Assembly: GCA_018645265.1 (NCBI GenBank)
Contig: JABGOS010000088.1
Location: forward strand, 11,083 to 75,082
Source: Deltaproteobacteria bacterium
GTDB taxonomy: Bacteria; UBA10199; 2-02-FULL-44-16; JAAZCA01
Direction of reading: 5' to 3'
DNA length: 64,000 nucleotides
Shown here: positions 3,062-53,266 of the stretch, one piece after another
Position numbering within the stretch: position 1 is the stretch's first letter
Layout of the letters: every line of letters starts with the position of its first letter
The notes under the pieces: generated by a model
Seen by the model: the letters and a program-made list of their open reading frames with translations, nothing else
Told to the model about the DNA's origin: nothing
Database searches by the model: none
Made by a program: the position numbers and the translations under genes

Positions 3062-3819
3062 TAGACCTTAACAAGATATAGAGCACAGGCAGGAGCGCAA
3101 CGATAGGCCTCCTGCCTGTTTTTTTTCTCTAGTATGGACTTCACCTCATCTGGAGAAATATTATTCAATCCAACCTCAACCAGCGTTCCTACAATGTTCC
3201 TTATCATATGCCGAACAAAGCCATCCCCCTCAAAGATTATATCAACCACCCTCCCCTCACTGGGGATTGAGAGTGAATCGTTTGAGGGAATTACATAATT
3301 AATCGAAGTTATAGTTCTCACTGCATCAGAAGCGGTACAACCGGAGGCCCTAAAGCTTTCATAATCATGTTTGCCAACAAGATAGCTTGAAGCTTTCTTC
3401 ATGAGCTCAATATCTAATTCATGTTTAATTCGCCATGCGCGATTATTGAGAAGTGGCACCCTCTGCTTACAATAGAGCATCCTATATCTATACTGCTTGC
3501 CCTGAGCATCACGAAGCGCATGAAAATTAAGATCCGCCTCCTCCGCATCGACGATAGCGATATCCTGGGGTAATATTGAATTAGCGCCCTTCATTATCCC
3601 GTCAGGGGGAATCGTTGAGTCAATCCTTACATGAGCAACCTGCTCAATGGCATGGACACCTGCATCCGTTCTGCCGGAAGCTATAACATCTACTTTTGAT
3701 TGAACAAGCTGACCTATCGCATCCTGCAACAGAGCTTGCACTGATCTCCCATTTGGCTGAACCTGCCAACCTACATACTCGGTGCCATCATAGGATAATT
3801 TTAGCTTAATATTTCGCAT
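3049..3819 (-). CDS. truA: tRNA pseudouridine(38-40) synthase TruA
   Basis: LSYDGTEYVGWQVQPNG and RTDAGVHA catalytic Asp motif. 256 aa. Confidence 0.9.
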   Translation of the reverse strand: MRNIKLKLSYDGTEYVGWQVQPNGRSVQALLQDAIGQLVQSKVDVIASGRTDAGVHAIEQVAHVRIDSTIPPDGIMKGANSILPQDIAIVDAEEADLNFHALRDAQGKQYRYRMLYCKQRVPLLNNRAWRIKHELDIELMKKASSYLVGKHDYESFRASGCTASDAVRTITSINYVIPSNDSLSIPSEGRVVDIIFEGDGFVRHMIRNIVGTLVEVGLNNISPDEVKSILEKKNRQEAYRCAPACALYLVKVYYTV

Positions 3820-3837: not shown

Positions 3838-4563
3838 CTAAAACTCGAAAAGCAATCCAAACGAGAAGAGATATCCACTCACATCCAGCCCCTTCTTACC
3901 AAAACTATCAATCCACTGATACGCTCCCTCAAGGGTCAAAAAGAAATCATTGATACCCATGTCGTGATCAAGATCTCTCCTGCTTCCTGACATCTCCGCC
4001 AGATTCAGCATCAACCCACCAGCTCCGTGCATACCAAATTTCATACCACTGATCTTGCTGCCGGAGATACTCTCTTTATAATAGACCCAATCAAAACCAG
4101 GTCTCAGATAAGGAACTATATAGCGCCATGAAAAATAATCCGCCCGCCATGTAAAGTTGAGCTCCATGGGTATCATGAAAAGATGCAAACGCTGTGCAGA
4201 TTGCGTACCGGTTTGTGAGTCAGTTATAGTTGCCTGCCCACTCTTATATAGAAAACCTGCACTTATCCCTACGCCGTACCTCCTGTTGAAGAGTAAACCA
4301 CCTTGTACCTTAGTGATCAAGTTGCAACACTTTGTAAACGCCTGCTTCAATTCTGCATTATGCGGTATCCAGAAACCAGTTCTCAATTCGAACTCCCACA
4401 TCTGAGGTGATTCATCAGTAGGAGTATATGATGACGATACATCTACTTCATTCACGCGCTCTTCATAGACGTTCGTCTGAGCATATACCTGTTTGGACAC
4501 CAGGACTAAGGAGAGTAGAACACAGATTACGACAGGATACTGTAGAATGCTTTTTCTATTCAT
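3838..4563 (-). CDS. Putative outer-membrane beta-barrel protein
   Basis: N-terminal signal peptide (MNRKSILQYPVVICVLLSLVLVSKQVYAQ). Alternating amphipathic strands and a C-terminal aromatic-Phe (FSFGLLFEF) typical of OMPs. Confidence 0.5.
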   Translation of the reverse strand: MNRKSILQYPVVICVLLSLVLVSKQVYAQTNVYEERVNEVDVSSSYTPTDESPQMWEFELRTGFWIPHNAELKQAFTKCCNLITKVQGGLLFNRRYGVGISAGFLYKSGQATITDSQTGTQSAQRLHLFMIPMELNFTWRADYFSWRYIVPYLRPGFDWVYYKESISGSKISGMKFGMHGAGGLMLNLAEMSGSRRDLDHDMGINDFFLTLEGAYQWIDSFGKKGLDVSGYLFSFGLLFEF

Positions 4564-4565
4564 AA

Positions 4566-5585
4566 TCAGAGATACTCTTTAACCAATATTTCAGCGATTT
4601 GAACCGCATTCAACGCCGCCCCTTTTCGCAGATTATCAGCTACGATCCACAACGCGAGTCCGTTCTCCACGGTGTTATCTTTTCGGATCCTTCCGACATA
4701 GACCTCATCCTTACCAACAGCCTCTATAGGCATCGGGTACTTACAGAGATTTGTTTCATCCATGACGACAACTCCAGCGGTCTCCATTAATATTTCCCTA
4801 GCTTTATCAGGATCTATTGGATCTTCAAACTCGAGGTTCACCGATTCTGAATGTCCACAGAATACAGGCACCCTTACAGCTGTGGCTGTAATCTTTATAT
4901 TTTCATCACCAAGTATCTTCTTAGTTTCAAGGATCAGTTTCATCTCCTCATCGGTATAAGCATCATCGTTGAAAGTGCCTATATGTGGGATACAATTGAA
5001 TGCAATCCGATGTGGAAAATTCTCGATCTTACAATCACCTTCTGAAAAGAGATCAACCGACTGCCTGGATAACTCCTCTATCGCCTTCAGCCCGGCGCCG
5101 GACACAGACTGATATGTGGAAACCACCGCTCTACGTATACCGGCATACCTGTGCAGTGGATCTAAAACCACGACTAGCTGAATTGTAGAGCAGTTTGGAT
5201 TTGCTATAATTCTTCTATCCTTAAAATCTGAGATAGCAGCTGCATTAACTTCTGGAACGACTAGAGGTATATCCTCCTCCATTCTGAATGCTGACGTATT
5301 GTCTATAACCACCGCACCCGACTTAACAGCAATAGGCGCATATTTCTTACTTATGTCACCACCTGCCGAAAAAAGTGCGATATCAACATCTGAGAAAGAA
5401 TCTTCCGTTAGAACTTCAGCGGAGAGATCTTCTCCAAGATACATAACATCCTTACCAACTGAATTCTCAGAGGCTAGTGGAATTAGATTCCTCACTGGAA
5501 ATTTTCTCTCTTCCAGCAGAGAAATCATCTCACCGCCTACAGCTCCAGTAGCCCCAACAACCGCTACATTATATCCGTCACTCAT
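4566..5585 (-). CDS. asd: Aspartate-semialdehyde dehydrogenase
   Basis: N-terminal NAD fold VAVVGATGAVG, and active-site region IANPNCSTIQLVVVLDPL. Confidence 0.9.
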   Translation of the reverse strand: MSDGYNVAVVGATGAVGGEMISLLEERKFPVRNLIPLASENSVGKDVMYLGEDLSAEVLTEDSFSDVDIALFSAGGDISKKYAPIAVKSGAVVIDNTSAFRMEEDIPLVVPEVNAAAISDFKDRRIIANPNCSTIQLVVVLDPLHRYAGIRRAVVSTYQSVSGAGLKAIEELSRQSVDLFSEGDCKIENFPHRIAFNCIPHIGTFNDDAYTDEEMKLILETKKILGDENIKITATAVRVPVFCGHSESVNLEFEDPIDPDKAREILMETAGVVVMDETNLCKYPMPIEAVGKDEVYVGRIRKDNTVENGLALWIVADNLRKGAALNAVQIAEILVKEYL

Positions 5586-5588
5586 TGA

Positions 5589-5873
5589 CTATCCTTTCTT
5601 GAAAATGGCCTCCAGATCGCTCTTGGCCTTCTGAATATCTGCTTTTTCCTTATCGACCTCCCTACCAAACTTAAAGAACTCACAGAAGTTTGAGCCCTCC
5701 TTATCGGAGACAAGACGCGCCTGATTCTCCCTGCATTTATTATGATAGCTACGATCATAGAATGTACATTGCATACAGGCATGTAGATAATGCCCACAAT
5801 GACGACACTCTTCAAGTCGCCCTATCTTGAATTCTAGATCAACCTCATGTCCACAGAATACACATGCCGGCAT
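5589..5873 (-). CDS. Small Cys-rich zinc-ribbon protein of unknown function
   Basis: CxxC...CxxC...CxxC...C spacing in 94 aa with a Lys/Glu-rich C-terminal tail. Chosen over the overlapping same-strand ORF 5582..5815. Confidence 0.45.
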   Translation of the reverse strand: MPACVFCGHEVDLEFKIGRLEECRHCGHYLHACMQCTFYDRSYHNKCRENQARLVSDKEGSNFCEFFKFGREVDKEKADIQKAKSDLEAIFKKG

Positions 5874-5875
5874 AT

Positions 5876-6754
5876 CTATACTCCAGTGCCATTGGCTCGA
5901 TTCTTATCCTTCGATTTATCATGGTCCGACAAGTCTACAACATTATCGTCCCCATCTTTCATAAGCTCCAACTTGTACTGCTTTCTCTCAGCCCTTCTCT
6001 CCTTCATCTTTCTGACAAACTTCCGACTCTGATGAAGGGTCACGAGCTCCTCAACGACACCTGATGCCACATATCCAACGGTCAAGACGAACATGGTTAC
6101 CTCTGGTTTTATAGCCACCAGAAAAATCCCGATGACAACCAACACCAGTGCAAAAAAACTGTTCCGCTTTTTTATGTCAATGACCTTAAGACTTCGATAT
6201 CTGATCGTTGAAACCATGAGCAATGAGAGTATTATTGTAATTACAGCAATCGTAATACTTCCCTCAGGCGGGAAGATAAATAGATGATGATAGAATATTA
6301 CATAAGTGGCTAGAACATACGCGGCAACTGGAATAGGCAGACCCTGAAAATACTCCATCTCAACATCATCATGCTGAACGTTAAAACGCGCAAGTCTCAG
6401 TGCACCACATGCAAAAAATAAAAATGCCGCTAGCCAACCCAGCTTCTTAAGTCCGTATAATGACCAGGTGTACATCAATATGCCAGGAGCGAGTCCAAAA
6501 GATGCAAGGTCTACCAGGGAATCATATTCAACTCCAAACTGACTCTCAGCCTTCGCAAGCCTAGCCAATCTTCCATCGATGAGATCAAAGATGCCGGCTA
6601 GCAAAATTGCCCATGCTGCTGCTTTAAAATCTCCCGAGAGCGACTTAACAACTGAAAAGAAACCACAGAAGAGGCTCGCTGATGTGCATAGATTTGGCAG
6701 AAGATATACACCCTTCTTCATACTATCGCGGCGTCTATGTCCCTTCATATTCAT
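5876..6754 (-). CDS. pssA: CDP-diacylglycerol--serine O-phosphatidyltransferase (CDP-alcohol phosphatidyltransferase family)
   Basis: DxxDGxxAR...G...D...D motif (FDLIDGRLARLAKAESQFGVEYDSLVDL). Multi-TM. The start may be the internal Met MKKGVYLLPNL. Confidence 0.8.
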   Translation of the reverse strand: MNMKGHRRRDSMKKGVYLLPNLCTSASLFCGFFSVVKSLSGDFKAAAWAILLAGIFDLIDGRLARLAKAESQFGVEYDSLVDLASFGLAPGILMYTWSLYGLKKLGWLAAFLFFACGALRLARFNVQHDDVEMEYFQGLPIPVAAYVLATYVIFYHHLFIFPPEGSITIAVITIILSLLMVSTIRYRSLKVIDIKKRNSFFALVLVVIGIFLVAIKPEVTMFVLTVGYVASGVVEELVTLHQSRKFVRKMKERRAERKQYKLELMKDGDDNVVDLSDHDKSKDKNRANGTGV

Positions 6755-7422
6755 AGATATCTCCCGATAATTGTAGAACCTGAGATCACCCTATCCCCCT
6801 TCTTCACATCCACCATCGTCTCTGGTGAAAGATAGAGATCGACCCTTGATCCAAATCTTATCAGACCGAATCTGTCACCCCTTTCAAGCGATGCACCCTC
6901 CTTGAAATAGCAGATGATACGCCTGGCTATTAAACCAGCTATCTGAACCATCACTATCTCACGCCCTTCGTCATCCTCTAGCACCAAGAGATTTCTTTCA
7001 TTTTTCTCAGAAGCTTTGTCCAGACTGGCTACAAAAAACTTTCCCGCAAAATAACGGATCTTCTTCACAGTAGCACTTACAGGGAACCTGTTGATATGAA
7101 CATTAAGAACGGACATGAATATGCTGACTTTCGTTGTTTTCTTCCCAGTCTCCGGTGCAACTATGTCATTCTCAACTTTCAGAACACGTCCATCCGCTGG
7201 CGATATTATCAACCCTTCACCCTTTGGAACTGTGCGTTCAGGATTTCTGAAGAAATAGGTCACAAAGGCTGCCACCCCTATGAAGAACATAGCAACTGAA
7301 CTCAGTTCGACGGCAAAGAAAAAAAGCGATATTACGGCAGCTATTGCAATAAAGGGATGCCCCTCCTTCGCGATATACATCTGCCGCGGCATCGGCCTAT
7401 ACGAATCTATCAATTTTTCCAT
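6751..7422 (-). CDS. psd: Phosphatidylserine decarboxylase-related protein (short, archaeal-type Psd proenzyme)
   Basis: Overlaps pssA by 4 nt, which is the classic psd-pssA pairing. N-terminal TM segment and C-terminal FGSRVDLY (GS processing-site-like). Start chosen at MEKLIDSY (an AAGGA lies 11 nt upstream). The track ORF extends to 7512. Confidence 0.55.
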   Translation of the reverse strand: MEKLIDSYRPMPRQMYIAKEGHPFIAIAAVISLFFFAVELSSVAMFFIGVAAFVTYFFRNPERTVPKGEGLIISPADGRVLKVENDIVAPETGKKTTKVSIFMSVLNVHINRFPVSATVKKIRYFAGKFFVASLDKASEKNERNLLVLEDDEGREIVMVQIAGLIARRIICYFKEGASLERGDRFGLIRFGSRVDLYLSPETMVDVKKGDRVISGSTIIGRYL

Positions 7423-7584
7423 AGGGTAGATATCCTTGTAAGTATGCTTTATTAAACGCCTTCCACCAGCTATCCCGGCAGATAACATGCACCGATAGCG
7501 ACAAGAGTGCAAATCTTATTGAAGTGGTAATGCGATGAACGAATCTGGGACTTATACGAGCCTCGGCAACCTGCAGCCGTTCAA

Positions 7585-10751: not shown

Positions 10752-12106
10752 TACATGCCTAATGTATTTTTAATCCAAGCACTTACACCCCATATGCTAT
10801 CAATATCCTTTAAGGTAATAAGAACCATAAATGACATCAAAATGATGAATCCAGTCTGATTTGCGATAGATCTGAACTTTGCACTTAGTGGCTTCCTCTG
10901 GATCGCCTCGATCCCAAGGAACATGAGATGTCCACCATCAAGCACAGGAATAGGCAGAATATTCAAGATTGAGAGCTGTAGGCTTAAAAAAGCCATAAAA
11001 TAGAGAAAGTGCCCAAGCCCTGATGCAGCAGCCTGTGCGGACACCTTTGCGATTACAATGGGGCCACCCAGCACCTTATAGGATAGCTTCAGTGTAATCA
11101 GCCTGTACAGAACTTCAAACGTAAGCTTAGCTAGTTTTATATCCTCTTTAACTCCCAGAATAATTGAGTCTACGAAACCATAACGATAGACTTTCTGAGG
11201 ACCGATATTTCTTCCATTCGTATATATACCGACCACCCATCTACCGCTCTCTGCGCTATAGGTCGGCTGAATCTTGAAATTCTCTCTTGTACCATCATCC
11301 CTACTCACCGAAATTGAAGTCTCCTCACCTCCGGATGCATTGACGCTAGCAGAGAAGTCATAGAAGTCAGCAACTGCCCTACCATCATATGACGTGATGA
11401 GGTCACCCGGTTTCAAACCCGCCTTTTCAGCCGGGCCCCCAGGCACCAGCGAACTGACCTCGGCCTTATAGCCGAGAAAGAAAACCGGTTCGACTCCCAG
11501 ATATCCACCTTTTATTTCAGGCAGTTCACCTACGACGACCTCCTTCTCAATTACCTCCCCATCCCTCATCACCTTCAGTGAGACATTCTGACCGGGACTG
11601 AGCAAAATTCTATTGATGGTGTCAGACCACAGCTTCATCTCAGCACCATCAATAGAAAGGATTTTATCGCCCTTCATGAGTCCTGCCACCTCTGCCGGTG
11701 ACTCAGCTTTGATACCAATGAGAACTGGAGGTTCATGTAGATAGACCGGTTCTGTACGACCTATCATAAAAACTATCGGCATCAGGACTAAACAGAGCAC
11801 CATGTTCATAATTGGACCGAACGCTACGACCTTCGCCCTTGCCCAAACGCTTTTCTGTGCAAACGCCTGAGGATCATCTGCTCCCTCATCGGTAGGATCC
11901 TCTCCGAGCATTCTCACATATCCACCAATCGGAAATAATGAAATACGGTAATCCGTATCACCCTTTTTGAATCCAATAAGCCTAGGACCGAATCCCAAAG
12001 AGAAAGCGTCGACGCGTATGCCGGCACGCTTTGCCATTATAAAATGCCCCAACTCATGTATGAAGATTAATATTCCAAGTGTTATTACGAAGTAGATAAA
12101 AGTCAT
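10751..12106 (-). CDS. rseP: RIP metalloprotease RseP (site-2 protease, two PDZ domains)
   Basis: HELGHF zinc motif in the first TM helix, PDZ repeats, and a C-terminal LDGG motif. Sits downstream of dxr as in many bacteria. Confidence 0.85.
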   Translation of the reverse strand: MTFIYFVITLGILIFIHELGHFIMAKRAGIRVDAFSLGFGPRLIGFKKGDTDYRISLFPIGGYVRMLGEDPTDEGADDPQAFAQKSVWARAKVVAFGPIMNMVLCLVLMPIVFMIGRTEPVYLHEPPVLIGIKAESPAEVAGLMKGDKILSIDGAEMKLWSDTINRILLSPGQNVSLKVMRDGEVIEKEVVVGELPEIKGGYLGVEPVFFLGYKAEVSSLVPGGPAEKAGLKPGDLITSYDGRAVADFYDFSASVNASGGEETSISVSRDDGTRENFKIQPTYSAESGRWVVGIYTNGRNIGPQKVYRYGFVDSIILGVKEDIKLAKLTFEVLYRLITLKLSYKVLGGPIVIAKVSAQAAASGLGHFLYFMAFLSLQLSILNILPIPVLDGGHLMFLGIEAIQRKPLSAKFRSIANQTGFIILMSFMVLITLKDIDSIWGVSAWIKNTLGM

Positions 12107-12181
12107 AATTCAGCGCCTAAGTGTGTTTGTATTTGATTGTCTGAGTTTAAATAAACAACAGATTAAAACAAATATTGAATG

Positions 12182-13327
12182 TTATATGAGCCCGGATGCC
12201 TTCTCCCTCGCCCATCTATCGATATCCACTATCTCATCTATTGAATCAAAATCATGAGGATCGTGAGCATCCATGGTCCCCCTGACCACGCGATATATAT
12301 CTCCAAATTTTATACTGTTCTTCAAAAATGCATCTACAGCAATTTCATTTGCAGCATTCAAAACTGCTGGCATGGAACGACCCACCTCTAATGACTCAAA
12401 TGCAAGATTAAGACATGGGAATTTTTCTCTATCCGGATCCTCAAATGTAAGTTCGCCAATCTTCTTGAGATCCAACGTATCCACGCCGCTCTCTATCCTC
12501 TCCGGATAGGATATGGCATAAGCTATTGGTGCCCTCATATCCGGAACTCCTAGTTGAGCTACAACGCATCCATCACGATACTCAACCATAGAATGAATTA
12601 TACTTTGAGGATGGACGACCACATCTATCTGCGCCGGATCTACATTGAAAAGCCATTTAGCCTCGATAACCTCCAACCCCTTATTCATGAGTGATGCTGA
12701 ATCGATAGTTATCTTCGCACCCATCAACCACTTCGGATGTTTCAGGGCCGCTTCAGGTGTAGCATTATCTATTTCATCCTTACCCTTACCACGGAATGGA
12801 CCACCGGAAGCTGTAAGAAGGATTCTCTTCAGATCCTCATGTCTGTGACCGACGAGCGATTGAAAAATCGCCGAATGCTCGCTGTCTATAGGAAGGATCT
12901 CTACGCCATTCTCCTTGGCTAACCTAGAAACAAGCGCCCCGGCAACGACCATCGTCTCTTTATTTGCCAAGGCTAATCTCTTCTTACTTTTAATAGCTGC
13001 GACTGTGGGTTTCAATCCTGCTGCGCCAACAATTGCAGAGACAACTGTATCTGCCTCTGGATGCGCTGCCACCTGACAGGCCCCACTTATTCCGTGTACT
13101 ATTTCCGGTTTCTCCTTCTGCAACATGCCCCGCAACTTATCCGCTGCTTCCGAATCCCTAACAGATACGAGTTTCGGACGAAACATCTCTATATGCTTAC
13201 TCATCATTTCAACATCATGCCCCTCTGCCAAGGCCACGACATTGAACTTATCCGGGTGTCTCCCCACGACATCCAACGTGCTGAGACCAATTGAGCCTGT
13301 GCTTCCTAGTATAGATAGAGATTTCAT
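12182..13327 (-). CDS. dxr: 1-deoxy-D-xylulose 5-phosphate reductoisomerase
   Basis: [20 protein letters not shown] motif. Start placed at MKSLSILGS, which is preceded by GGAGAG. The track ORF begins 18 nt further upstream. Confidence 0.9.
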
Positions 13328-23777: not shown

Positions 23778-24911
23778 TTAGAATACAAACTGCAGAGTGG
23801 CTCCGCCACCGATGCCACCGCTGATCTGTCCCTGATGTCCATTGACATCTGAGTCTGTCGCTTCAAGAACGCTTCTCTCTGAAAAACCTGCGATCGGTAC
23901 ATCGAAGAATACATTACCCATGAGCCTTATGGCCGAGAGAATATCCTCCACACCACCGGTGTTGATCTGGATGCCGGCTGCGAGCATGAATCCGAGAATA
24001 CCGCGTCCCTGCTGTATCGGACCTGTCGCCGTACTGGCGAGATTTGCATATTCACCACCGAGATGGAACTGAGCACCAACTACGAGTGAAACAGAATCAT
24101 GGACCGGGATTACAGGTTCGAGACCTACAAATGCGGTTCCTCTGAAGCCAGCCTTCGGTTCGCTATCTACTGCACCGTTCGATGACATGATGCGGCTGGA
24201 GATAGGAATTCCTAGCAATGCACCGTATGAGAGGAAGAGACCTGAATGCTGCTGTGGCTTTCCCCACATCATAAGGCGACGTCTTCCCTCAAGGCTGATT
24301 TGAACCATGTGGCTAACTGCTCCACCGTCTCCACCCAAATCGCCCATATAGGACATATCACTGAAATCTCCATCGGTACCCTGGACCCATCCGCTACCGC
24401 TGTATCCATAACCAAGGCCCAAAACAAACTGATGCTCATCTACCTTGTCGGCATCTTTCGGTGTCGCTTTGCATGATTTGGAAGCAGCATCAAAAGTTTC
24501 ATCGCTATCACAAGGCTTACATACGCCCGCATCCACTTTCTTGCCTTCAAGAGCACACTCATCAGCAGTCTTCGGCTTCGGTGCGGCCATATCTTTTTCG
24601 ACATCGGCACGCTTCGGCAATGATGGAGCACTTGCCATACCATAAAAGCCAGACATTCCCTTGAACATCGGCAATGGAAGCTTGCCTGTGTGCATCTGGA
24701 AATAATCCTCACACTTAGCTGCGATAGGGGTGCCCTTCGTATGCCCTATGGTGCCGAGAAATTCGGACCAATCCTTCCCTGTGGCATCACCAGCATCAAA
24801 CATCTGTTGATCTGTATCTACCATTGAGCATCTAAATGTGATGCCATCCTTGAAATCCTGACACGCTTTGGTTGTACAACTCTTTAGTGTTCCGTCGCCT
24901 GCTGAAAACAT
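23778..24911 (-). CDS. Cys-rich protein with OMP-like beta-barrel C-terminal half (ends ...GGATLQFVF); no detectable signal peptide
   Basis: Strong RBS (AAGGAGG 7 nt before the ATG). The C-terminal 200 aa have alternating hydrophobic strands and a terminal Phe. Sits immediately upstream of the giant gene on the same strand with a 47-nt gap. Confidence 0.45.
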   Translation of the reverse strand: MFSAGDGTLKSCTTKACQDFKDGITFRCSMVDTDQQMFDAGDATGKDWSEFLGTIGHTKGTPIAAKCEDYFQMHTGKLPLPMFKGMSGFYGMASAPSLPKRADVEKDMAAPKPKTADECALEGKKVDAGVCKPCDSDETFDAASKSCKATPKDADKVDEHQFVLGLGYGYSGSGWVQGTDGDFSDMSYMGDLGGDGGAVSHMVQISLEGRRRLMMWGKPQQHSGLFLSYGALLGIPISSRIMSSNGAVDSEPKAGFRGTAFVGLEPVIPVHDSVSLVVGAQFHLGGEYANLASTATGPIQQGRGILGFMLAAGIQINTGGVEDILSAIRLMGNVFFDVPIAGFSERSVLEATDSDVNGHQGQISGGIGGGATLQFVF

Positions 24912-25266
24912 AATTACCTCCTTGAAATCTTTTTCCCCCGAAAAAGAATGAAGTGACTATTGTCCATTATCCTCCATCTTCATTATCGAACTTAGACGTA
25001 AAAAGTTGCTGGTTTTTTTATCGGTTTTTTTTGGAACTTCAGAAGCGCCCAAATAGGATAAAAAGGACGCTATATCATTAATCATTACATATACTTACAA
25101 AATATGCATTATTTCGGAGCTTTGCATATTTTTTTTGAAAATATCTATTTTTTTCTCCATGAAGAAATTTTTTATTAATTTTACCGAACACATTTTTTGA
25201 TATATTTAGCATTATATAAACGCTCTATACCCAGCCCATCTTCGTCATTTCTCCCAATTTGTTGCT

Positions 25267-25289
25267 AAAAAAGTGTCCGACACTTTTTT
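25267..25289. repeat. REP-like palindromic element copy 1 (AAAAAAGTGTCCGACACTTTTTT)
   Basis: Exact core GTGTCCGACAC flanked by an A-run and a T-run. Lies upstream of the RAYT gene. Confidence 0.75.
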
Positions 25290-25426
25290 GCTGCACATTG
25301 ACCACTTTTCATACACCTACAAGATTCATATCATTGATATATATGGGTTTTTTATGGAATAAATATTGCTCTCTCACATCTCAAATATCAATCGTAACAC
25401 CTATCCAGGAGGTTATTTTGACCAGA

Positions 25427-26029
25427 ATGCCACTTATCCATATCCCGGGGGGTCTCTACTCTGTGGTCAGCAAATGCAATAACAATGAATTTTTGTTCGA
25501 CTCTAAGGATAAATTCGAGCTGTATCTCAGGCATTTAATGGAGTGTAAGAAAGTGCAAGGCTTCAAGATCTACGATATCGTATGCATGTCGAACCATGTT
25601 CATGAACTGTATGAAGTGCCTGAAAAAGTAACTATCGCTAAAATTCTGCAGCGAGTTAAGGGTAGTTTTGCCATAAAATTCAACGTTATTTACAAGAGAA
25701 GCGGTCATTTCTGGAAGAACAAACCATTTTATAGGGTGGTTGAAGATGAGGAGCACGCCATCGCATGCATCAACTATTTCCACGAAAACCCCACAAGGGC
25801 AGGTATGGTGCTGCATCCATCCCTATGGCCCTTCTCCGGATATAACTTCCATGTACATGGTGATCGAACAGGCCTGATAGGAAAGCTACTTGACCCACTA
25901 CCCGGCTACAGCGAATTCTCGCCATTTGATGAGATGAAGATAGATGTTGAAAAGGTCCTAGGCTCTAAAAAACATAAATTTTTAGGCAGCTCTATCTTTC
26001 AGGAATCTATGAAAACAAAGTACAAATGA
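25427..26029 (+). CDS. IS200/IS605-family HUH/Y1 transposase, REP-associated tyrosine transposase (RAYT)-like
   Basis: HuH motif (MSNHVHEL) and a Tyr motif followed by NP.RAG (YFHENPTRAGMV). AGGAGG at 25407-12. The track ORF 25259.. extends 5' across the REP copy and an AT-rich tract, which is unlikely to be coding. TTG at 25418 is an alternative start. Confidence 0.65.
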   Translation: MPLIHIPGGLYSVVSKCNNNEFLFDSKDKFELYLRHLMECKKVQGFKIYDIVCMSNHVHELYEVPEKVTIAKILQRVKGSFAIKFNVIYKRSGHFWKNKPFYRVVEDEEHAIACINYFHENPTRAGMVLHPSLWPFSGYNFHVHGDRTGLIGKLLDPLPGYSEFSPFDEMKIDVEKVLGSKKHKFLGSSIFQESMKTKYK

Positions 26030-47002: not shown

Positions 47003-49270
47003 CTATTCCATTTTTTTCTTAAAGCTACATTCCTTCTTAGGACAAGCTATCGAAGTCTCGCCACTCCTCTTGGAATATTTCTCAACTAGAATAGGATTCC
47101 CGCAGTCAGGACACTTCTCCGCAACCGGTTTATCCCAAGTTGCAAAATCACAATTCGGATACTTATTGCATCCAAAGAATATCTTTCCACGCTTTGTGCT
47201 CTTCTGGACCAGTTCGCCATCCGCACACTGAGGGCATTTCACACCAGTGCTGATCGATTTCGTATTCTTACAATCAGGGTATCCAGAGCAAGCCAGAAAT
47301 TTTCCGAATTTACCCCTCTTTACGACCATAGCTTTACCACATTTATCGCAGATCTCCTCCGTCTCTATAGCTTTCTTGATCTGTATCTCACCGGCATCAT
47401 CCCTCACGAACTCCTTAGTGGTTCTACATTCCGGATAGGTTGAACAAGCCAAGAATTCGCCATGTTTTCCCCACTTGATAACCATATTGTTGTTGCACTT
47501 CTCACACACGATATCTGTGACGACCTGCTGCCTTTTAACATCGCGCATCTTCTCCCTGGCTTCCCCAAGTGCTTTTTCAAAAGGACCATAAAAATCCTTT
47601 AATGTATTCAGCCAAGATACCTTACCCTCCTCGACTTCATCGAGCTCCCTCTCCATATGGGCGGTAAAACCTATTTCAAGGATTTTCGGAAAACTAGAAA
47701 CCAGGAGATCATTCACCAGCTTGCCAAGCTCTGACGGATGAAACCTCTTCTCCATTTTCCTTACATATCCCTTATCCTGAATTGTACTCATGATGGATGC
47801 ATATGTGGATGGCCGTCCGATTCCCTTCTCCTCCAACTCCTTGACGAGCGATGCTTCAGTAAAACGCGGTGGCGGCTGTGTAAAATGCTGATGAGGATCT
47901 ATCTCGATGAGTTTTAATTCTTCGCCCTCTTTTAAATCGGGCATTGTAGGATTATCTTCCTCGTCCTTCTCCTTCTCCTCATCCACACCTTCCATGTACA
48001 CGGAGATGAAGCCAGGAAAGCGCATTACTTGACCTGTCGCACGCAGTTTAAATCTTCCCGCCATAACATCAAATGCCGTTTGATCGAATACAGCTGGTTT
48101 CATCTGAGACGCTATAAAGCGCTTCCATATAAGATCATACAACCTATACGCATCTCGTTCGAGATATTCCTTCACCACCTCCGGAGAACGATCCATCGAT
48201 GTAGGTCTGATAGCTTCATGCGCATCCTGGGCGCCTCGTTTACTCTTATAGATAACGGGTTTATCGGGAAGCATTTTATCGCCGTATTTATCCTTGATGT
48301 AATCCCTGACCATATCGAGCGCTAAATTTGAAACACGGATAGAATCCGTTCTCATATAAGTGATCAGACCAACAGCTCCTTCACCGCCTATCTCAATTCC
48401 TTCGTATAGCATCTGGGCAAGCGCCATAGTCTTCTTTGCAGTAAAACCAAGCTTTCTTGCAGCCTCCTGCTGAATCTTTGAGGTGATAAAAGGCGGAGAT
48501 GGTCTTCTCCTGCGTTCACTCTTCCTAATCGCTGCCAATGTAAAATTCTGTTTACGAAGTTCATCGACTATCGAGGTGGCACCACCCTCATCTGAGATGT
48601 CGAAATCCTTCTCCTCAATTTTTATTAGTTTAGCTTCAAACTGGGGAGGAAGACTTCCCTCAAGCTTAGTAACAACCGACCAATATTCCTTCGATTGAAA
48701 GGCATCAACCTCCGCCTCGCGCTCACAGACGATCCTCACCGCAACGGACTGCACTCTACCTGCGGAGAGCCCCCTTCTCACCTTATCCCACAAGAGCGGA
48801 CTTATTCTATAACCGACCAATCGATCCAAAACCCTTCGAGCCTGCTGTGCTTCAAATAGGTTGCCATCCAACTCCGTGGGATTATCTATAGCTTCTTTGA
48901 TTGCTGCTTTCGTAATTTCGTTGAATCGCGCACGATGAATCGTTGGACAATTTTTCTTGGTGGCCTTCTTTATTCGGTCCGCTATATGCCACGCAATAGC
49001 CTCTCCCTCTCGATCTGGATCGGGTGCGAGAAATACTGAATCCGATTTCTTAGCTGCATCGGTGATCTTTTTGAGAACCTTCGATTTACCACGTATGATG
49101 ACGTATTTTGGCGTAAAATCATTTTCGACATCAACGCCTAGCTCACGAGTTGGAAGATCGATAACATGACCCACCGAGGCGATCACAGAAAAGTTCTTTC
49201 CGAGATACTTCTTGATAGTTTTGGCCTTCGCCGGAGATTCGACCACTACAAGCGCATTTCCCATTATCAT
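47003..49270 (-). CDS. topA: DNA topoisomerase I with C-terminal C4 zinc-ribbon repeats
   Basis: Toprim N-terminus (ALVVVESPAKAKTI). Active Tyr region. Three or more CxxC...CxxC ribbons at the C-terminus. Confidence 0.9.
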   Translation of the reverse strand: MIMGNALVVVESPAKAKTIKKYLGKNFSVIASVGHVIDLPTRELGVDVENDFTPKYVIIRGKSKVLKKITDAAKKSDSVFLAPDPDREGEAIAWHIADRIKKATKKNCPTIHRARFNEITKAAIKEAIDNPTELDGNLFEAQQARRVLDRLVGYRISPLLWDKVRRGLSAGRVQSVAVRIVCEREAEVDAFQSKEYWSVVTKLEGSLPPQFEAKLIKIEEKDFDISDEGGATSIVDELRKQNFTLAAIRKSERRRRPSPPFITSKIQQEAARKLGFTAKKTMALAQMLYEGIEIGGEGAVGLITYMRTDSIRVSNLALDMVRDYIKDKYGDKMLPDKPVIYKSKRGAQDAHEAIRPTSMDRSPEVVKEYLERDAYRLYDLIWKRFIASQMKPAVFDQTAFDVMAGRFKLRATGQVMRFPGFISVYMEGVDEEKEKDEEDNPTMPDLKEGEELKLIEIDPHQHFTQPPPRFTEASLVKELEEKGIGRPSTYASIMSTIQDKGYVRKMEKRFHPSELGKLVNDLLVSSFPKILEIGFTAHMERELDEVEEGKVSWLNTLKDFYGPFEKALGEAREKMRDVKRQQVVTDIVCEKCNNNMVIKWGKHGEFLACSTYPECRTTKEFVRDDAGEIQIKKAIETEEICDKCGKAMVVKRGKFGKFLACSGYPDCKNTKSISTGVKCPQCADGELVQKSTKRGKIFFGCNKYPNCDFATWDKPVAEKCPDCGNPILVEKYSKRSGETSIACPKKECSFKKKME

Positions 49271-50373
49271 CTCCCAATGCGAAACCTTCGTCCAGGCAAC
49301 TCCAGTATCTCACCACCCAGCGTAAGCTTCGTTATTTCCATCAGAATCTTTGATGTTTCCATTCCAGTTTTTTTAATGAGTTCATCCACCGTAACCTCAC
49401 CGCGTTTGGGGAAAAAGCTCAAAAGTGTTGAACCCTTACCCACATCATCTTCAAAATGTCCAGATTTTTTCAAATCGGGCCATTTTTCAAGCTCCCTCTC
49501 CACTATCCCTAACATGTCATCGACGCTCTCAACGAGAGTGGCTCCATCACGGATCAATCCGTTGGATCCCGCAACAGCCCAACTTCCACCAACACCAGGC
49601 ACTGCAAATACTTCACGCCCTTGCTCAAGCGCGAGCTTCGCTGTGATAAGGCTGCCGCTCGAATGTGCTGCCTGCACTATCAACACCCCCAAGCTCATTC
49701 CGCTAATAATTCTATTTCTCTGTGGAAAATACGATGGGTAGGGTCTGATCCCGATTGGAAATTCAGATAGCAGCAGACCATTATCAGAAATTTTTTGAGA
49801 TAAGCTGAGATGTTCAGCAGGATAAATATGATCTAAACCACACCCAAAGACAGCAATCGTATTACCCTGAGCATCCAGAGCTCCCCTGTGTGCCGCAGCA
49901 TCAACGCCATAAGCCATTCCACTAACTATACAGAAACCCGATTCACAGAGTGAACCAGCGATTTCAAAGGCAAGTCGCTTACCATCGGAATTCGCCTTTC
50001 TAGATCCGACAATTCCTACACATGGGATGTTTAATCTAAGTTCTCCCCGCCCCCTTACCGTAATAGCAAGTGGAGGATCAACAATCTCCCTCAGCATTCT
50101 TGGATAGCTCTCATCACAGATGCATATTATGCTAGTCAGAGATGCCTTGGCATGATTCCAAATCTTCTCTAACTTCTTCCAATCATTGAAATTCTTAAAT
50201 TTAAGCCATGCGGATTCTTGATACCCAAAAAGGTCTCTAAAACGGATACGATCTCCTGTGAATACTCCACTAGCTGATCCCTCGGCTTTGATAAGCTCCG
50301 ACATCAATCTTGGATAACCATGTAGAATTGTTTGGATTGCGAACAAAAAAAACCGCTCATCCTCATTAGCCAT
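49267..50373 (-). CDS. dprA: DNA processing protein DprA (Smf)
   Basis: Rossmann-like core GIVGSRKANSDGKRLAFEIA. Coupled upstream of topA by a 4-nt overlap. Confidence 0.85.
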   Translation of the reverse strand: MANEDERFFLFAIQTILHGYPRLMSELIKAEGSASGVFTGDRIRFRDLFGYQESAWLKFKNFNDWKKLEKIWNHAKASLTSIICICDESYPRMLREIVDPPLAITVRGRGELRLNIPCVGIVGSRKANSDGKRLAFEIAGSLCESGFCIVSGMAYGVDAAAHRGALDAQGNTIAVFGCGLDHIYPAEHLSLSQKISDNGLLLSEFPIGIRPYPSYFPQRNRIISGMSLGVLIVQAAHSSGSLITAKLALEQGREVFAVPGVGGSWAVAGSNGLIRDGATLVESVDDMLGIVERELEKWPDLKKSGHFEDDVGKGSTLLSFFPKRGEVTVDELIKKTGMETSKILMEITKLTLGGEILELPGRRFRIGR

Positions 50374-50431: not shown

Positions 50432-50779
50432 TTAGAACGACTGCCCGCCGGTATCCGTACTACCATCGGTGCTTTGGGGTGGCGTAGGCGTCGACGCGCC
50501 AGCGCTACCATCGACTCTATCCTTAAGCTCCTTACCTACCTTAAAAAAAGGCAGTCTCTTAGGACTTACTTGGATGGAATCACCCGTTCTCGGATTTCTT
50601 CCCGTATAGGACTTGTACTCCTTAACTACGAAGCTGCCTAACCCACGGATTTCAATCCGTTCCCCCTTGGCCATAGCATTCGTCATCGAATCGAAGATGA
50701 GGTTGACAACATCCTCCGCCTTCTTCTTCGTTATCTTTGATTTTTCCGCTACAGCCTCGATGAGTTCTGACTTATTCAT
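50432..50779 (-). CDS. HU/IHF-family DNA-binding protein with Ser/Thr/Gly/Pro-rich C-terminal tail
   Basis: MNKSELIEAVAEKS...GFGSF..R..R.GRNP.TG arm motif, followed by a 25-aa low-complexity tail. Confidence 0.8.
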   Translation of the reverse strand: MNKSELIEAVAEKSKITKKKAEDVVNLIFDSMTNAMAKGERIEIRGLGSFVVKEYKSYTGRNPRTGDSIQVSPKRLPFFKVGKELKDRVDGSAGASTPTPPQSTDGSTDTGGQSF

Positions 50780-50974
50780 CCCCCACCCCTTGTCTAATTA
50801 TTGGATTTCATTAGAGAAAATAGCAACTACTCGCTTGTGTGTCAAGTGGCATTTTATATATTAGCTAGTTCGGCAAACCTTGATTTATCAATACTTTCAG
50901 GGAGATGGGGCATATCCAACAGGGACCTGTAGTCGATTCTTATCCACTTTATCAGCTTGAAAATTGACAAAAAA

Positions 50975-50999
50975 GCCCTCCATAAAGAGGGCTTTTCGC
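50975..50999 (-). terminator. Rho-independent terminator (GCCCTC-CATAAA-GAGGGC) flanked by A6/T4, bidirectional
   Basis: A perfect 6-bp stem. On the minus strand it is followed by TTTTTTGT. Sits 3' of the 432-aa orphan gene. Confidence 0.65.
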
Positions 51000-51022
51000 A
51001 GATCATTCATAACTTATTATTC

Positions 51023-52321
51023 TTAGAAACTGGGCTCAGCCAAAGGGTTAACAATTCCATACATCTTTGTGTTAGCTTTGACGGCAACAGCAAGTGCTTC
51101 TTCATCAGTAACGATATCTAGTGCCTGAATAAGTCCACGTGAAAAAGCTGAATGCAAACCATCACCCATATAAGCAGGTAATTTTACCCTGCTTTTTACT
51201 CGAGCTGCTTCCAAAGTAATCAATGCACTTCGAAGTGTTACAGCATCTCGAAGGATATCGCCTATACCAATACCACCATCCTCCTCAAGAGCGAATGGCT
51301 TAGCAATCAACGGTGAGTTCAGCCCACCCCAGGGATTATTAACTCTCCAAGCAACATTAATAATTCTCAGCATCTCTATTAGTGATTGAGCTTTATCAGC
51401 CGCACTTCCTTCACCAAGACTTTTTAGAATTGCCTCATTCTCTAAACCAAATAAGACGGCTGCAACATTATCGGTTTGTAGTTTGAATAAATATGCAGGA
51501 CGTTCCGCCATCCAATCCGGGTTTTCTTGAACCTGAATACCTAAAAGTGCTTTCCATTCACCCCCGACGGTATTTAGCATAAAACCACTTTCGAAGGCCC
51601 TACCAGCAGCTGCTTCAAAACTCCTTGAGAAGGCTACTGTTGCCTCTGCATCATCAGGAAGAACAAAGTCACCTTCCATTAATTTAAACTTTTTACCAGG
51701 GGCATGATGGGTTTCAAGATCCACCGAGGTTATCAAGCCGCCAGTTATACATCTCCTTATAAAATCATGAACTTCTTGTGTATACGGAGTATAGTACTTC
51801 TGTTGCTTTTCACCCGTTAGCCACGCCTCATGTGTAGCCCTTGCGAGATTGTGTAAATTTGTACCTACACCCCTACCTGGGTTAGCGCCTTCAAATCTTC
51901 CCAAGGCTTCATGAGTTTTTAGCTGGAGCTGCATCAGGCTTGAATAAACCCAAAAGGAATGAACAAGACGTTGTTTATCTGTAGCCAGAGCTCCTTCATC
52001 CCATGCGTTCTGCAAGGCCTCAAATGTATCAGGACCTACAAAATCATGTACACCGCCCATACCATCTGGACTAGCATACATCTTCACAAAATCAGAAACT
52101 CCTTGTGGCGCACGCGGCGTAACACCTGTAAAAGCGCTCACATCACCAGCTCTACCAGGTATTGAACTCAACTGTGGACCGCTAAGTTCAAACATCGCTG
52201 TAACTCTGGGATTGGCAACATATGTCGTAGCAGCCGCACCAACTGTAAATGGCCGTCCAGCAACTCCAAGGGTGAGCCCCTCCGTGGCTAATGCAGCTAG
52301 ATTACCTGCCGAAATCATCAT
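51023..52321 (-). CDS. Hypothetical 432-aa protein (orphan; no signal peptide; possibly capsid/shell-like, unverified)
   Basis: No motif recognised. Flanked by AT-rich intergenic DNA and a strong terminator. Confidence 0.4.
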   Translation of the reverse strand: MMISAGNLAALATEGLTLGVAGRPFTVGAAATTYVANPRVTAMFELSGPQLSSIPGRAGDVSAFTGVTPRAPQGVSDFVKMYASPDGMGGVHDFVGPDTFEALQNAWDEGALATDKQRLVHSFWVYSSLMQLQLKTHEALGRFEGANPGRGVGTNLHNLARATHEAWLTGEKQQKYYTPYTQEVHDFIRRCITGGLITSVDLETHHAPGKKFKLMEGDFVLPDDAEATVAFSRSFEAAAGRAFESGFMLNTVGGEWKALLGIQVQENPDWMAERPAYLFKLQTDNVAAVLFGLENEAILKSLGEGSAADKAQSLIEMLRIINVAWRVNNPWGGLNSPLIAKPFALEEDGGIGIGDILRDAVTLRSALITLEAARVKSRVKLPAYMGDGLHSAFSRGLIQALDIVTDEEALAVAVKANTKMYGIVNPLAEPSF

Positions 52322-52534
52322 TCCTCCATAAGAACGAAAAAATTACCTTCATCCATAACCATGTATCTGCGCACGATATTTCGCATATTTTACGAAAAAG
52401 TTGCTAGGTTTTATCTATATTATCCGACGACATTGCAAGAGAATTAGCTTTAAGTATTTTATAGGTTATTCATTTATCATATTGAATTTGAGAATAAAAT
52501 ATTTCTCACATTGATCAGCAAGAGAAAATAGCAC

Positions 52535-53170
52535 CTATCTTTTTCTCTTACATATCGAAAGCAGATTCCTATCGTTTACAGTTGGGTAACCCCATGCCCT
52601 TTCAAAGATCTCCTGGCTCACCTCGAAATTTGGCATCGGGGGCATCCCGGGGTCATGTAGTATAATCCTATCACCGACGATATCGCATATAACTATAAAA
52701 TGACCTGCATACCCTTCGTGACCATGAAGTGCAGCAGAGTTTAGATTAATGATAACAATATGCTGGCTCTTCAGGAGAGCTTCAATATCATCAAGCTGTG
52801 GAATGCGATATTCGATTGGAGCTTTATCAACGAATTCCTTAGCAATCGTTCTTTCCTCTTCAACATCGCTATTTTCTATCTGCGCCCTGCCTACTTCCTC
52901 ACCATATCTCTCTAGCAGATATTCACCACCTCTATCCACAAATGCCCGATAATCGAATTCTTCGATCAGGCCAATCTCCAACCCCTGATCCATCATCCAT
53001 AACATTGCAGATGTGGGCCAAGTCCATTTACCAGGTTTCTTGTTTGAGATCTCGTCGAGGTATTCATAGCTAAATTCCTTCTCTGGGATCAGCATTCCAA
53101 GTGCCATCTTGAGCGCAGCCTGAAAACAATGAGTGCCATCACCTGTATTTGGATAAAAAGGAATTTTCAT
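52535..53170 (-). CDS. Papain-like/C39-like cysteine peptidase domain protein
   Basis: N-terminal GDGTHCFQAALKMAL (a Cys nucleophile in a C39-like context) and a downstream His (GHFIVICD). 211 aa. Confidence 0.45.
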   Translation of the reverse strand: MKIPFYPNTGDGTHCFQAALKMALGMLIPEKEFSYEYLDEISNKKPGKWTWPTSAMLWMMDQGLEIGLIEEFDYRAFVDRGGEYLLERYGEEVGRAQIENSDVEEERTIAKEFVDKAPIEYRIPQLDDIEALLKSQHIVIINLNSAALHGHEGYAGHFIVICDIVGDRIILHDPGMPPMPNFEVSQEIFERAWGYPTVNDRNLLSICKRKR

Positions 53171-53193
53171 GAAAGATTAATTCAACCGCCCAG

Positions 53194-53266
53194 TGGGCCT
53201 GGCAGGAATCGAACCTGCGGCCCTCTGCTTAGGAGGCAGATGCTCTATCCCCTGAGCTACAAGCCC
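53194..53266 (-). tRNA. tRNA-Arg (anticodon CCT)
   Basis: The reverse complement folds as acceptor GGGCTTG/CAGGCCC, anticodon loop CTCCTAA, T-loop GGTTCGATTCC. No encoded CCA. Confidence 0.85.

Follow-up and report, generated by a model that had tools for sequence, protein, structure and literature searches.

We analysed a 64-kb stretch of a deltaproteobacterial metagenome-assembled genome (MAG; contig JABGOS010000088.1, positions 11,083 to 75,082; hereafter the window), with emphasis on an orphan open reading frame (ORF) of 432 amino acids (aa) and its 211-aa neighbour, which resembles C39-type cysteine peptidases and lies beside a tRNA-Arg(CCT) gene. Both ORFs and the tRNA are present as described in the original prediction, which was made from the sequence alone and grouped the two genes as an AT-rich islet at the tRNA, perhaps encoding a protease and its substrate. 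All coordinates are window positions; gene order follows the ORF listing, and RNAs were located with ARAGORN and Rfam. Every gene from 47.0 to 56.2 kb lies on the minus strand, and on balance this region appears to be a conserved, resident string of housekeeping genes, surE-pcm-nlpD-apt-tRNA-Arg(CCT)-C39-like-HU-dprA-topA, with one inserted gene between the C39-like gene and the promoter of the HU gene. Within the proposed insert, of about 1.65 kb, the 432-aa ORF would be preceded by an AT-rich region that carries a Shine-Dalgarno sequence and followed by a terminator of its own. The features of the locus are as follows:

47003-49270, minus strand: topA
49267-50373, minus strand: dprA
50432-50779, minus strand: gene for an HU/IHF-type DNA-binding protein (Pfam Bac_DNA_binding, E = 1.3e-32), resident and downstream of the proposed insertion
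50813..50829: right copy of a 17-nt direct repeat, minus-strand sequence TAGTTGCTATTTTCTCT, overlapping the -10 element of the HU promoter
50817..50845, minus strand: promoter of the HU gene (promoter scan, 10/12 matches; TTGACA, 17 nt, TATTTT, with TG upstream)
50846..50969: spacer common to the orthologous insertion (L004) and not alignable to empty sites (alignment A5)
50970..50997, minus strand: intrinsic terminator hairpin of the 432-aa gene (terminator scan: 12 pairs, then TTTTTTG)
51023..52321, minus strand: 432-aa orphan ORF
52322..52520, minus strand: AT-rich upstream region of the 432-aa gene (~30% GC), with the Shine-Dalgarno sequence GGAGGA at 52322-52327
52521..52537: left copy of the 17-nt direct repeat, minus-strand sequence TAGGTGCTATTTTCTCT, in which TAG is the stop codon of the C39-like gene
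52535..53170, minus strand: 211-aa papain/C39-like cysteine peptidase homologue
53193..53266, minus strand: tRNA-Arg(CCT) (ARAGORN; Rfam 71 bits)
beyond the tRNA in coordinate order, minus strand: apt, an M23/LysM peptidase gene, pcm and surE

Five related contigs (L010, L011, L012, L024 and L025) lack the 432-aa gene at the corresponding site; their C39-like proteins share from 63% down to 50% identity with that of the window, and in them the C39-like gene is followed directly by the HU gene. One other occupied locus was found, with a 78% identical orthologue (P0002) in a MAG labelled Myxococcales and the same HU-dprA-topA context downstream. The HU promoter and 5' leader (TTGACA, 17 nt, TG.TAtTTT) are conserved at occupied and empty sites alike (alignment A5), and on this alignment the conserved promoter is taken as the resident flank of the junction. 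Common only to the window and the orthologue locus (alignments A4 and A5; L004/L005) are the terminator hairpin, about 70 nt beyond it and blocks upstream of the ORF, the hairpin again lying downstream of the orthologue in L004; by the same comparison the spacer at 50846..50969 is probably the distal end of the inserted segment. A separate observation concerns contig L013 of the MAG that holds this orthologue, where a 265-aa ORF (6749-7546, minus strand), which contains a run of N and has no Pfam match, lies after the C39-like gene and before the contig end; from its position the insertion in that MAG would be larger or compound, with the assembly breaking inside it.

The GC content at third codon positions (GC3) of the 432-aa ORF is 0.307, the lowest among the 44 ORFs of the window (0.453 +/- 0.038; z about -3.9), and its homologues in other genomes follow the GC3 of their own hosts. 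The GC3 of the C39-like gene is core-like (0.415), and its total GC is also typical. Comparison of the 432-aa gene with its L004 orthologue gave a ratio of non-synonymous to synonymous substitution rates (dN/dS) of 0.06, which denotes strong purifying selection and therefore a working gene. The gene is also bracketed by the 17-nt direct repeat (50813-50829 / 52521-52537), whose copies are identical at 16/17 positions in the repeat search; 0/2000 Markov-resampled spacer pairs reached this score, with P ~0.02 for such a match anywhere in 3 kb. The right copy is the resident -10 region of the HU gene, which is conserved in the empty-site relatives. We considered the repeat as a conserved att site and rejected this, as it is absent from the orthologous locus, and from the empty sites beyond the HU copy. 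Since it is missing at the orthologous locus, it is treated here as a trace of rearrangement rather than as a proven att site. We consider it likely that lateral transfer brought the 432-aa gene, as a cassette of one gene, into the ancestor shared by this MAG and the Myxococcales-labelled one.

The AT-rich DNA that was said to bound the gene pair is real as far as the spacers go, but the stretch at 52322-52534 separates the two genes instead of bounding them, and that at 50780-51022 is only mildly AT-rich (38.7% GC, 6th percentile). The former has 30.5% GC and falls within the lowest 0.5% of 213-nt windows in the 64 kb; as the window has about seven other troughs of this kind, the spacer has the appearance of normal intergenic DNA. 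Likewise, a hairpin and T-run exist where a strong bidirectional terminator had been proposed, but they were scored on the minus strand only, and bidirectionality plays no role here because all the neighbouring genes are on that strand. The region upstream of the 432-aa gene matches no Rfam family (a sub-threshold RNAI hit corresponds to the terminator hairpin only), folds as RNA no better than shuffled sequences (z = 0.59), and contains no sigma-70 consensus match in the promoter scan and no meaningful small ORF. The ORF opens with two consecutive ATG codons, the first of them abutted by the Shine-Dalgarno sequence (52316-52327); the second is the likelier start, as the database entry of the identical protein (P0001) has 431 aa. 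The deepest AT trough of the window lies elsewhere, at 24897-25410, where 213-nt windows go down to 25% GC; just downstream of it is the plus-strand ORF at 25343-26029, whose total GC of 40.9% is the minimum among the ORFs of the window, and in composition this place stands out more than the region considered here.

The 211-aa neighbour is a resident cytoplasmic papain-fold Cys-His-Asp protein, and its link to the inserted gene is positional only. Its Pfam matches to DUF3335 (PF11814; 22.8 bits against a cut-off of 25) and Peptidase_C39 (PF03412; 17.3 against 22) are both below threshold. The papain or C39-like nature earlier suspected from its Cys/His signature is nevertheless supported by a papain-like fold and by C15, H157 and D173, which are invariant in 39 homologues and are putatively catalytic, as judged from residue order and fold and not from a residue-level superposition. 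The closest known proteins are the peptidase C39 and C39-like systems (PF03412, PF13529, PF11814; PCAT1, ComA-PEP, 3erv and PeiR). In contrast to these, the 211-aa protein is stand-alone and lacks a signal peptide, and its gene has a fixed housekeeping neighbourhood: apt, tRNA-Arg, HU, dprA and topA are its neighbours in 6 contexts, and in none of these is an ABC exporter, a bacteriocin precursor or a substrate gene with a Gly-Gly (GG) leader fused or adjacent to it. With at least 119 homologues, this stand-alone protein encoded between apt/tRNA-Arg and HU is conserved and much more widespread in the clade than the 432-aa family.

The tRNA-Arg(CCT) gene, which is 22 nt from the 211-aa gene, precedes the C39-like gene also in L010, L012, L013, L024 and L025, and absence of the segment as a whole was not seen, the C39-like gene being kept beside the tRNA in all these contigs. 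Searches of the 64 kb with patterns of the tRNA 3' end (26 nt and 16 nt, up to 3 mismatches) matched the tRNA itself and nothing else. Only two ORFs of at least 100 aa that do not overlap a longer ORF lie between the HU gene and the tRNA, and neither has an integrase domain in Pfam. The tRNA thus has a conserved place beside the C39-like gene, and in the window it is not demonstrably a site of integration. Two relatives with empty sites differ in this respect. In L010 the 3' 50 nt of the tRNA and the bases downstream are duplicated (5744-5810 and 5921-5987), forming a 67-nt repeat, 97% identical, that begins 177 nt downstream; this looks like an att-type scar, and integration at tRNA-Arg(CCT) would therefore have taken place in the clade, but not in the window. 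In L024 (1621-5000) two genes lie between the tRNA and the C39-like gene, one for a signal peptide-bearing 495-aa protein without a Pfam match and one for a GATase_7 protein. On either side of the 495-aa gene stands one copy of a terminator hairpin, the two forming a perfect 30-nt direct repeat (1698-1727 and 3442-3471); this is again a cassette of a single gene between copies of a local regulatory element. The product of the 495-aa gene was tested as a relative of the 432-aa family and proved unrelated.

The 432-aa protein, the product of an atypical gene, is a stand-alone copy of an undescribed, rare and selected all-α domain family. It has no match in Pfam, NCBIfam or PHROGs, and none in PADLOC beyond a chance-level hit to SspE (E = 0.027), which agrees with the earlier impression that it carries no recognisable motif. 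All 34 family members gave only single chance matches against Pfam and NCBIfam, and nothing usable came from PDB sequences, whether searched with profile A1, profile A2 or three multi-domain relatives. We recovered 14 homologues among 5.8 billion sequences and, by profile, 43 representatives among 1.84 billion; 3 loci were found in 185,579 species genomes and 7 in a metagenome collection, the reach of both scans being set by their search patterns. When the broad alignment A2 served as query in a third homology search, the matches listed were all known stand-alone proteins.

The protein consists of a Gly/Ala/Thr-rich N-terminal extension (about residues 1-60; consensus LATxGxTxGxAARAFTVGSAG), which is specific to the stand-alone forms, followed by an all-α domain of about 350 aa. 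In the AlphaFold2 (AF2) model residues 115-420 are all-α and mostly above 90 in predicted local distance difference test (pLDDT) score, and the model has no match among PDB or viral folds. The hallmark motifs of the family are FE..NPG, THEAWL, INTVAGEW, GLQAD, NVxWRVNNPWGG and GGIGIxDIxKDA. Across 34 diverse members H164, R274, Q282, R326, G350 and G352 are invariant, and the near-invariant residues include W167, Y180, H185, K211, N250, T251, W270, R319, N322, W325, N328, N329, W331 and D359. This pattern of conservation would suit a binding pocket or an active site.

The same domain of about 350 aa (profile positions ~60-415) was also found with hmmsearch in proteins of 900 to 7025 aa from other uncultivated bacteria, often as tandem pairs. 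By eye, 14/21 of these multi-domain relatives have N-termini resembling Sec-type signal peptides, and transmembrane-like segments occur in the large relatives. In P0138 the domain directly follows an SLT (lytic transglycosylase) domain and is in turn followed by HATPase_c, SecA_PP_bind and HEAT. P0139 carries regions 2 and 4 of sigma-70, P0137 carries TPR-S/MAP3K_TRAF_bd, HATPase_c, HD and NAD_binding_9, and P0164 carries TPR-S. Most of the others have no Pfam domain (5/6 further ones scanned, and also P0134 and P0141), and a hidden Markov model (HMM) of the C39-like family of the window finds no match in any multi-domain relative. Uncultivated, putatively predatory bacteria have giant proteins for which SecA preprotein-binding domains, signal peptides and C39 domains at the N-terminus are described as typical (West-Roberts et al., bioRxiv 10.1101/2023.11.21.568195). 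The large relatives resemble these published giant exported proteins in their signal-peptide-like N-termini and in the SecA_PP_bind domain, and are candidate members of that class; the protein of the window differs from them in being a stand-alone, single-domain copy without a signal peptide. Another published class is that of the multi-domain "polyvalent" proteins of mobile elements (Iyer et al. 2017, PMC5512222), against which the lack of relatives in IMG/VR, phage or plasmid collections argues. In four of the large relatives (P0150, P0153, P0158 and P0167) the signal peptides are immediately followed by a conserved segment, MP..PAPG.MV.L.P.FTPA.L.GI.I.P.N.LKFDFLI, which suggests a second undescribed module that may travel with the 432-aa-type domain.

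Stand-alone homologues of the 432-aa protein occur in six other, unrelated neighbourhoods, which share no conserved partner and contain no C39-like gene. One of 52% identity (L001/L015, the same contig) lies in a small variable patch downstream of a transfer-messenger RNA (tmRNA) gene and 3 kb from it, after an AbiEi/AbiEii toxin-antitoxin pair; here the tmRNA is at 4531-4871 and the genes extend to 10348, with a 62-aa ORF and AbiEi/AbiEii before the homologue and a Band_7/SPFH gene after it. Another (L003) is inserted between hypA and hypF; an AbiEii/AbiEi pair 5 kb from it (11468-13215) has about 42% GC against about 60% in the other genes of the contig and is clearly foreign. Further homologues lie next to an AAA_14/DUF4143 ATPase gene and next to a Xer-type recombinase gene. 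In two lineages, represented by P0012 and P0013 and by four contigs, the homologue is 25-75 nt downstream of a Radical_SAM + CofH_C gene on the same strand, with a VitK2_biosynth (MqnA/D-type) gene nearby.

Several observations weigh against a laterally gained cassette that carries an exported type of domain. The total GC of the 432-aa gene is typical (0.448 and 0.432 for the 432-aa and 211-aa coding regions, with a window mean of 0.454), and the mean synonymous-codon log-likelihood does not separate the gene from core genes; a contrast with the core genes is seen only in the 432-aa gene and only in GC3, which we judge more informative because amino-acid composition influences the likelihood. 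The locus has no mobility gene, the absence of the family from viral, phage and plasmid collections tells against mobility of the cassette, and the direct repeat is missing from the orthologous locus and may stem from local duplication, not from transposition or an att site, as the HU -10 region, itself conserved, is one of its copies. The occupied site is shared by one other lineage only, the assembly of which breaks between the two genes, and gain as opposed to ancestral presence with loss is not rootable from the compared contigs. With respect to function, the 432-aa protein has no signal peptide or hydrophobic segment, the first 110 residues of its AF2 model are of low confidence, and the only grounds for the functional guess are the domains that accompany this one in a few giant proteins and signal peptides judged by eye.

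Some of these points would also suit an old resident of the gene string, an ordinary hypothetical gene retained in this lineage and deleted in its relatives: the gene occupies the same place upstream of HU-dprA-topA in the second MAG, where its 78% identical orthologue lacks the repeat, and it combines strong purifying selection with typical total GC and no mobility genes. We regard such a history as unlikely, though deserving of some weight, given the absence of the gene from five syntenic contigs that span 50-63% identity in the C39-like protein, the presence of other family members at unrelated loci, some of them beside tmRNA and toxin-antitoxin genes, the deviant GC3 and the non-chance repeat that brackets the gene. 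Integration of both genes as a small islet at tRNA-Arg(CCT) is far less credible. Like tRNA-targeted islands, the locus does adjoin a tRNA, has an AT-rich spacer and a short direct repeat at its flanks, and includes one gene of deviant GC3; in relatives the spacer between tRNA and C39-like gene is variable (the 67-nt duplicate of L010 and the two extra genes of L024). It differs from them in the lack of an integrase and of a duplicate tRNA 3' end, in a repeat derived from the HU promoter and not from the tRNA, and in the insertion of one gene only; moreover, the gene that touches the tRNA is syntenic in all relatives examined, has core-like codon use and stands between the inserted gene and the tRNA. 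What survives of the proposed AT-rich islet is an atypical and probably acquired 432-aa gene, and not a two-gene unit.

Regarding function, a capsid-like or encapsulin-like shell, as suggested in the original prediction, or a cargo directed to such a shell by the N-terminal FTVG(S/A) motif, is highly improbable. The consensus ARAFTVGSAG bears a loose, putative resemblance to encapsulin targeting peptides of the LTVGS type, and the protein resembles HK97-fold shells in length only; their α/β fold with A and P domains is not seen in it. As its core is all-α and its AF2 model matches neither HK97, encapsulin or other viral folds nor any PDB structure, it is not an HK97 or encapsulin protein; there is also no PHROG match and no relative in viral collections, and the neighbours called up to 8 kb away in seven contexts include no Linocin_M18/encapsulin family. 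A cytoplasmic metabolic enzyme, such as one for an accessory step of the futalosine (Mqn) menaquinone pathway, would fit the Radical_SAM + CofH_C and MqnA/D-type genes near P0012 and P0013, and conserved His, Arg, Gln, Asp and Glu suit an enzyme. Six other contexts lack Mqn genes, most multi-domain relatives look exported and the family is far too rare for a pathway step, which makes this very doubtful. Processing of the 432-aa protein by the C39-like peptidase, for instance by removal of the disordered N-terminal region, likewise finds little credence with us. The two genes are adjacent on the same strand, the 432-aa protein has a low-confidence N-terminal region of about 100 residues and its domain occurs also in giant proteins, and C39-like domains have been reported near the N-termini of giant exported proteins, with propeptide cleavage as their proposed role (bioRxiv 10.1101/2023.11.21.568195). 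However, the pair is found only in the lineage of the window: six contexts have the orphan without the C39-like gene and five have the C39-like gene without the orphan. The families differ in size (at least 119 homologues against 14), the C39-like HMM finds nothing in the multi-domain relatives, the 432-aa family has no conserved Gly-Gly leader, a 213-nt spacer separates the genes and the 432-aa gene has its own terminator.

Returning to the single-gene cassette, which would have been gained between the C39-like gene and the HU promoter in the ancestor of the two MAGs, we tentatively propose that its product may function as an enzymatic or ligand-binding domain whose substrate, for instance a glycan, would lie in the envelope or outside the cell. 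In the stand-alone forms the conserved Gly/Ala/Thr-rich N-terminal extension might serve for targeting or for binding a partner, in place of a Sec signal. In a wider and equally speculative scenario, which we consider possible, the family would represent a new fold (the 'NNPWGG' domain) that provides giant exported proteins with a catalytic or ligand-binding effector module and, as a single-gene cassette, enters intergenic hot spots, with the N-terminal peptide as an unrecognised targeting or export signal and with Myxococcota-like and Planctomycetota-like uncultivated bacteria as hosts.

Taken together, these results remove a false lead, as there is no tRNA island, protease-substrate pair or capsid-like shell at this locus. 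They provide a clean example, of modest interest and not a new system, of a single-gene indel that carries an undescribed domain family. This very rare but selected domain connects orphan genes of the stand-alone kind with giant exported proteins that otherwise escape annotation; if its activity came to light, a recurring module of giant proteins, whose biology is largely unknown, would be annotated.

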